Assembly: GCF_003334315.1 (NCBI RefSeq)
Contig: NZ_QOWR01000143.1
Strand: one strand, 5' to 3'
Length of the DNA: 233 nt
From: Escherichia coli
GTDB lineage: Bacteria > Pseudomonadota > Gammaproteobacteria > Enterobacterales > Enterobacteriaceae
Shown: piece after piece, positions 1-233 of the stretch
Numbering within the stretch: the first letter of the stretch is position 1
Layout of the letters: each line of letters begins with the position of its first letter
Program-made: the position numbers and the translations under genes
The notes under the pieces: generated by a model
What the model was told of the DNA's origin: nothing
The model's input: only the letters and a program-made list of their open reading frames with translations
Databases searched by the model: none

Positions 1-132
1 CCAACCTTCTGCACCAGAAATAACGGCACAAATAGTCAACAGTAGAATATCCGATAATTTATGTTCCACTTTCCAGGTTTGTCTGTAATCGGGGATAATA
101 GAAATATGTTCCATCAATTTTTTAAGTTCCAT
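1..132 (-). CDS. ISAs1-family (H-repeat-associated) DDE transposase, N-terminal 44 codons; 5' end complete, 3' end runs off the window at position 1
   Basis: Reverse-complement of 1-132 is an open frame starting at ATG (complement of 130-132) with no stop: [44 protein letters not shown]. The motif D-x-R-x(6)-H-x-L-x-D-I-L-x(3)-I-x-A-x-I-x-G-A-x-x-W is the signature of the DDE_Tnp_1-associated N-terminal domain of ISAs1-family transposases. From memory the peptide closely matches the start of E. coli H-repeat-associated proteins (YhhI-like); this was not verified by search. A strong RBS lies at the correct spacing. Confidence 0.88.
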
Positions 133-138
133 TTTGTT

Positions 139-144
139 CTCCTT
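139..144 (-). promoter_or_regulatory. Shine-Dalgarno sequence (AAGGAG) for the transposase
   Basis: Minus strand reads AAGGAG-AACAAA-ATG: a perfect core Shine-Dalgarno hexamer with a 6-nt spacer to the start codon. Confidence 0.75.
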
Positions 145-158
145 AATTAGGTAAGGAG
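139..158. repeat. Perfect 7-bp inverted repeat (CTCCTTA / TAAGGAG) with 6-nt spacer, overlapping the transposase RBS; potential stem-loop
   Basis: Plus 139-145 ctcctta and 152-158 taaggag are exact reverse complements, separated by attagg (146-151). On the minus-strand transcript this is CUCCUUA-CCUAAU-UAAGGAG, immediately followed by AACAAA-AUG. The stem has 3 G:C and 4 A:U pairs and cannot extend (positions 138/159 do not pair). Confidence 0.55.
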
Positions 159-233
159 TATTTGATCATGTATAAGCAATAAAAAACAGCTTCAGGTAAT
201 AAGGAATATCTCAATTTTTAAACATAAAATGCG

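Follow-up and report, generated by a model that had tools for sequence, protein, structure and literature searches.

The window examined here is a stretch of 233 nt of Escherichia coli DNA, and it is the exact reverse complement of positions 6001-6233 of L001, a sequence from a K-12 derivative. Read on its minus strand, the window holds the beginning of a transposase gene together with most of the leader that precedes it. The features recognised in it are the following.

1..132, minus strand: first 44 codons of the ISEc1 transposase gene (yhhI-type copy), encoding the N-terminal part of the PF13808 domain; these are IS positions 145-276 and residues 1-44 of the 378-aa product, as assigned from the translation, the Pfam match and identity to yhhI.
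130..132, minus strand: ATG start of the transposase gene, in agreement with the annotated yhhI start (L001 6102) and with the starts of 8 family members, which align.
139..144, minus strand: Shine-Dalgarno (SD) sequence AAGGAG, 6 nt (AACAAA) upstream of the ATG, read directly from the sequence.
139..158, minus strand: predicted hairpin with 5' arm CTCCTTA (158..152), loop CCTAAT (151..146) and 3' arm TAAGGAG (145..139), the SD sequence lying in the 3' arm.
160..168, minus strand: TGATCAAAT box, extended -10-like (TGnTCAAAT), with a Dam site GATC at 164-167; it aligns with the TGATCTnAT box of relatives.
133..233, minus strand: 5' untranslated left-end region of ISEc1 (IS positions 44-144), repeated in genomes; the window does not reach the terminal inverted repeat (IS positions 1-13).

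The minus strand of positions 1..132 is open from the ATG through all 44 codons, without a stop. The 44-aa fragment matches the Pfam model PF13808 (DDE_Tnp_1_assoc) with E=1.2e-12, residues 8-44 falling on model positions 2-38 of 88, which is far beyond chance. The NCBIfam model for ISAs1 transposases (NF033564) gives only 10.6 bits (E=0.24) on the fragment alone, because that model begins only at residue 29. At the nucleotide level, many E. coli chromosomes match the whole window at 100% identity (233/233) over the start of yhhI and the DNA before it, and the product there is named by NCBI 'ISAs1-like element ISEc1 family transposase'. Matches to the window are present in 5,334 of 5,426 complete E. 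coli genomes, at a median of 5 places each and at up to 12, some of them on plasmids, and 1,779 records are at least 99% identical to it. A scan against Rfam found no match in the window at E<=1. Taken together, these data agree with the first-pass annotation, which had seen here the 5' end of an H-repeat type ISAs1-family transposase gene and had called it a known element family rather than a novel system. The window is a member of ISEc1 (the H-repeat) and not a variant of it, and we are confident that it lies wholly inside one copy of this ISAs1-family element, the copy whose transposase gene is yhhI. The identification was already known and the feature is an ordinary one, so that the main finding carries little weight in itself; it re-identifies an insertion-sequence gene annotated as yhhI in E. 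coli K-12 and other genomes.

The remainder of the gene was examined on the identical genomic copy in L001, since the catalytic domain PF01609 and the D-D-E residues lie outside the window. The complete yhhI product of the matching genomes is 378 aa long. It scores 412.4 bits on NF033564, for which the cutoff is 70, and contains PF13808 at residues 8-94 (E=1.9e-33) followed by PF01609 at residues 102-343 (E=1.7e-29). When this product is aligned with seven family members (8 sequences in total, 31-50% identity), residues D109, D172 and E306 do not vary. The suggestion that the gene might be intact is thus borne out, as the start in the window belongs to an intact 378-aa open reading frame with both transposase domains in every 100%-identical genome inspected. 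The gene order in L001 is that of MG1655, namely nikR - rhsB - yhhH - a HEAT-repeat pseudogene (yrhC in MG1655) - yhhI - yhhJ. By analogy with other DDE transposases, the protein, with PF13808 as its N-terminal domain (part of which is in the window) and PF01609 as its catalytic domain, would bind the CAGGG-type terminal inverted repeats and would cut and join the ends of the element. Unlike the identity of the element, its ends, the intact frame and the D-D-E residues, all of which were observed, activity of this particular yhhI copy is something that we infer.

To set the ends of the element, both of which lie outside the window, five copies were aligned: yhhI beside rhsB, ydcC in two strains, a copy abutting dkgB, and a left-end remnant in strain UM146. 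Homology among the five begins at CAGGGAAAGATCA (L001 5958) and stops at TAATCTTGCCCTG (L001 7248), giving an element of 1,291 bp, which we take to be the length reported for the H-rpt in the older Rhs literature. The terminal inverted repeats agree at 11 of their 13 positions when CAGGGAAAGATCA on the left is compared with CAGGGCAAGATTA, the right end in reverse complement. On this numbering the window spans IS positions 44-276, with the ATG at IS position 145 and window position 233 at IS position 44, so that another 43 nt of ISEc1 lie between window position 233 and its left end. The stretch of 101 nt before the ATG (133-233) has a GC content of 27.7% and is present at a median of 4 places per genome. 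Since the window is entirely inside the element, this AT-rich DNA is ISEc1's own leader and not target DNA. The earlier view that the sequence marks an insertion into AT-rich DNA does not hold for the window, although the left flank of the yhhI copy, which is outside it, is indeed AT-rich (37% GC, compared with 53% GC on the right). The practical value of this analysis is one of correct annotation, in that the entire window is mobile-element DNA and the element boundary falls outside it.

In sequence, ends (CAGGG...CCCTG), length and rhsB neighbourhood, nothing distinguishes this element from the H-repeat of the E. coli Rhs elements. Other members of the ISAs1 family (ISAs1, ISKpn31, ISPa60, ISKpn9 and further relatives) have the same two-domain transposase at 31-50% identity and share with ISEc1 termini of the CAGGG type that contain a GATC, as well as the -10 box and the hairpin over the SD sequence. 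The left terminal repeat of ISEc1 and of most of its close relatives has GATC at positions 9-12 (CAGGGnnnGATC), as seen at the left ends of L007, L008, L011, L013, L016, L017 and L019, and at the right end of ISEc1 GATT stands in its place. When viral contigs were searched for the pattern of the left terminal repeat, 74 stretches came up, only five of them followed by an ISAs1 transposase, and these yielded just one new leader.

Comparison of the leaders within the close clade reveals a promoter-like arrangement. A TGATCTnAT sequence lies immediately 5' of the hairpin in all clade members, the ISEc1 version being TGATCAAAT at window 168..160. In ISKpn31, L008, L016, L017, L019, L020 and ISAs1, one of the hexamers TTGACC, TTGACT, TTGATT or TTGAAC is found exactly 17 bp before this box, and the 17-bp spacer is fixed in length and freely varying in sequence between the conserved -35 and -10 hexamers. 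Judged by its sequence pattern, this arrangement has the look of a real promoter with a TG-extended -10 element. The distance from the end of the -10 box to the 5' arm of the hairpin is 0-1 nt in most of these elements, 1 nt in ISEc1 and up to 3 nt in ISAs1. ISEc1 and most of its close relatives have one GATC in the -10 box (window 164-167 in ISEc1) and a second in the left terminal repeat; the box of L006 does not contain it.

ISEc1 departs from its close clade at this point. It has no -35 sequence at 16-18 bp from the -10-like box, such as the TTGACC that is found at 17 bp in the clade, and the second position of its -10-like hexamer is C, where the usual base is A. The distance from its left terminal repeat to the ATG is 144 nt, compared with 86-96 nt in the close clade, which amounts to about 50 extra leader bases. 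Because the -35 is missing at this spacing and the leader is longer, ISEc1's own promoter is probably weak or broken. A generic sigma-70 scan of the window found no sense-strand promoter under its criteria, and yhhI is not among the entries in the SMRT-Cappable-seq supplements. In genomic SELEX, the sigma-S holoenzyme gave a weak peak (intensity 3.3) in the interval from yhhH to yhhI, which is too coarse for positioning a promoter (PMC5493296).

Directly downstream of the -10-like box, the leader of ISEc1 is predicted to fold into a hairpin of seven perfect pairs (-8.0 kcal/mol) that is common to the MFE and centroid structures. This bears on the strong, well-spaced ribosome-binding site noted in the first-pass annotation. 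The AAGGAG and its 6-nt spacer are real, but the site is predicted to be buried in the 7-bp hairpin, and on some transcripts access to it may be restricted. Relatives at 45-51% protein identity also carry a hairpin in this position, with arms of other sequence, as listed here (5' arm/3' arm).

ISKpn31: GCTCCT/AGGAGT
L017: GCTCTC/GAGAGC
L019: ACTCTC/GAGAGT
L006: ACCTCCA/TGGAGGT
L008: GCTCTTC/GGGGAGC
ISAs1: GTCTCC/GGAGGC

Within ISEc1 itself the loop differs at one base. At window position 150 the gene strand reads C in the yhhI copy (CCTAAT) and A in the other four aligned copies, including the two of ydcC (CATAAT), a variant that resembles a -10 hexamer more closely than CCTAAT does. Owing to the palindromic nature of the repeat, AAGGAG is also found on the plus strand (153-158), with a 4-codon open reading frame, ATG TAT AAG CAA TAA (169-183), beginning 10 nt further on; this combination at 153-183 is probably due to chance.

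An inverted repeat of this size could be a functionless product of chance that leaves a strong SD sequence freely available, and ISEc1 taken by itself is compatible with such a reading. Compared with composition-preserving shuffles, which keep the C/T-rich composition upstream, the probability that the SD sequence is paired is 0.83 versus 0.69 (p=0.14), and the leader as a whole is no more stably folded than shuffled sequences (z=0.22). The relatives point the other way, since they repeat this arrangement in the same position relative to the -10 box, with arms that differ in sequence but are complementary to each other. Across 40 non-redundant family leaders, pairing of the SD sequence with upstream sequence exceeds that in dinucleotide shuffles (mean 0.59 versus 0.49; Fisher p=9e-6, a family-wide enrichment of p~1e-5). 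As loop lengths differ, MAFFT failed to register the 3' arms, and an anchored arm-swap permutation was used in place of column-pair counting. In this procedure the 5' arm was anchored at the end of the -10 box, independently of pairing, and was paired with the downstream region of its own element or with those of other elements. Cognate 5' arms gave -8.7 kcal/mol and non-cognate arms -5.7 kcal/mol, and none of 100,000 permutations was as good (p~1e-5). The predicted hairpin thus covaries across related ISAs1-family elements, and given the family-wide pairing and the arm-swap result, a chance origin is unlikely; we consider it improbable that the ISEc1 hairpin is without function. A different role for the same repeat was also considered, in which it serves an antisense RNA like the RNA-OUT of IS10. 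Here a plus-strand promoter located within the coding sequence, TTTCCA-18-GATAAT (70-99), would give a short transcript that ends at the hairpin and TATTTG (139-165) and pairs with the transposase translation start. A consensus scan does find a promoter-like site and a terminator-like hairpin on the plus strand, and the latter is in excess of expectation (1 versus 0.1 in shuffles). The promoter-like count is at the level of chance, however (1 found versus 1.2 expected), a promoter-like site on the antisense strand occurs in only 1 of 9 relatives and at a different position, and the run of T is specific to ISEc1. Moreover, the non-Watson-Crick pairs in the stems of the relatives are U.G on the sense strand only; on the opposite strand they would be A.C mismatches, and the stems would not form there. 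This favours a structure of the sense RNA over a DNA palindrome or an antisense RNA. With neither promoter nor terminator conserved in relatives, the RNA-OUT-like transcript was rejected, and we regard it as very improbable.

A sense-strand hairpin that hides the SD sequence recalls the fold-back inhibition and Dam control of IS10 and IS50, worked out in the Kleckner and Reznikoff laboratories in the 1980s. In those elements a stem buries the ribosome-binding site of the transposase, the element's own -10 lies against or inside the 5' arm of that stem, and GATC sites are found in the -10 and in the terminal repeat. The leaders of the ISAs1 family resemble them in having a predicted stem over the transposase SD sequence, a -10 that adjoins the 5' arm, and, in ISEc1 and most close relatives, GATC in both the -10 and the left terminal repeat. 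They differ in that the ISAs1-family transposase is unrelated and there is no sequence homology; unlike in IS10, an antisense RNA is without support in ISEc1. If the parallel holds, a transcript starting about 7 nt downstream of the -10 would begin at the 3' edge of the 5' arm or within the loop. The element's own transcripts would then be without the anti-SD arm and would be translatable, and those reading through from rhsB or yhhH would include both arms and have their ribosome-binding site buried. On the strength of this analogy, we judge the prospects evenly balanced that the ISEc1 leader regulates expression as in IS10 and IS50. More tentatively, and with somewhat less than even confidence, we suggest that ISAs1-family leaders, including window 133-233, form a regulatory module, in which a TG-extended -10 over a Dam site abuts a covarying, SD-hiding hairpin so that only element-started transcripts are translated. 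ISEc1 would have lost the -35 of this module, which could explain why transposition of the H-repeat has gone unseen.

Such a leader module for the ISAs1 family was not found described in the searchable literature. Searches for the regulation of H-rpt, ISAs1 and IS1358 gave nothing specific, and neither a measured transcription start nor a methylation effect was found in the literature for any ISAs1-family element. The matches in PMC10711316 concern ISEc12 and not ISEc1. The leader architecture is a modest, testable addition, and it offers a testable reason why transposases of this family should stay silent when active genes, for instance rhs toxin genes, lie upstream of the element; the lost -35 is likewise a candidate reason for the apparent immobility of ISEc1.

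This apparent immobility raises the question of whether the yhhI copy is anything more than a fixed relic within the RhsB element, in which the reading frame has stayed open and transposition has been lost, the ancestral promoter having been broken by about 50 additional bases that separate the -10 box from the terminal repeat. Both junctions of the yhhI copy are present in about 1,810-1,840 of the 5,426 genomes, about one third of the complete E. coli genomes, a count that agrees with the number of records matching the window at 99% identity or more. It follows that the insertion is an old one, passed on by vertical inheritance. No target-site duplication was found around this copy (L001 5949-5957 and 7249-7257; left GTCAACGGC, right AATACAGGA) or at the ydcC and GF50 copies, which is expected for old or recombined copies and leaves family membership by sequence unaffected. 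According to a genome paper, transposition of the H-repeat has never been observed (PMC3032704). The lack of a -35 at the usual spacing and the long distance from terminal repeat to ATG fit the same picture. Against it stand the intact reading frame with its conserved D-D-E residues, the multiple places that the element occupies per genome, including plasmids, and the copy abutting a truncated dkgB in GF50, which suggests some mobility or recombination within E. coli. Weighing these, we find the case for an immobile relic and the case against it about equally strong. The relic reading qualifies the main explanation, in which the window lies inside an ISEc1 copy, and does not exclude it.

Two of the five aligned copies lie in other surroundings. 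In E. coli GF50 (L004 2458-3748), ISEc1 follows a PAAR-domain gene directly and borders on the truncated dkgB, a context that differs from that in K-12 and hints at past mobility or recombination of ISEc1. In E. coli UM146 (L003, about 2457-2610), a solo left-end remnant of ISEc1, consisting of the terminal repeat, the leader and about the first four codons, is located a short way before the PAAR and VgrG genes of type VI secretion, and homology to the element ends shortly past the ATG.
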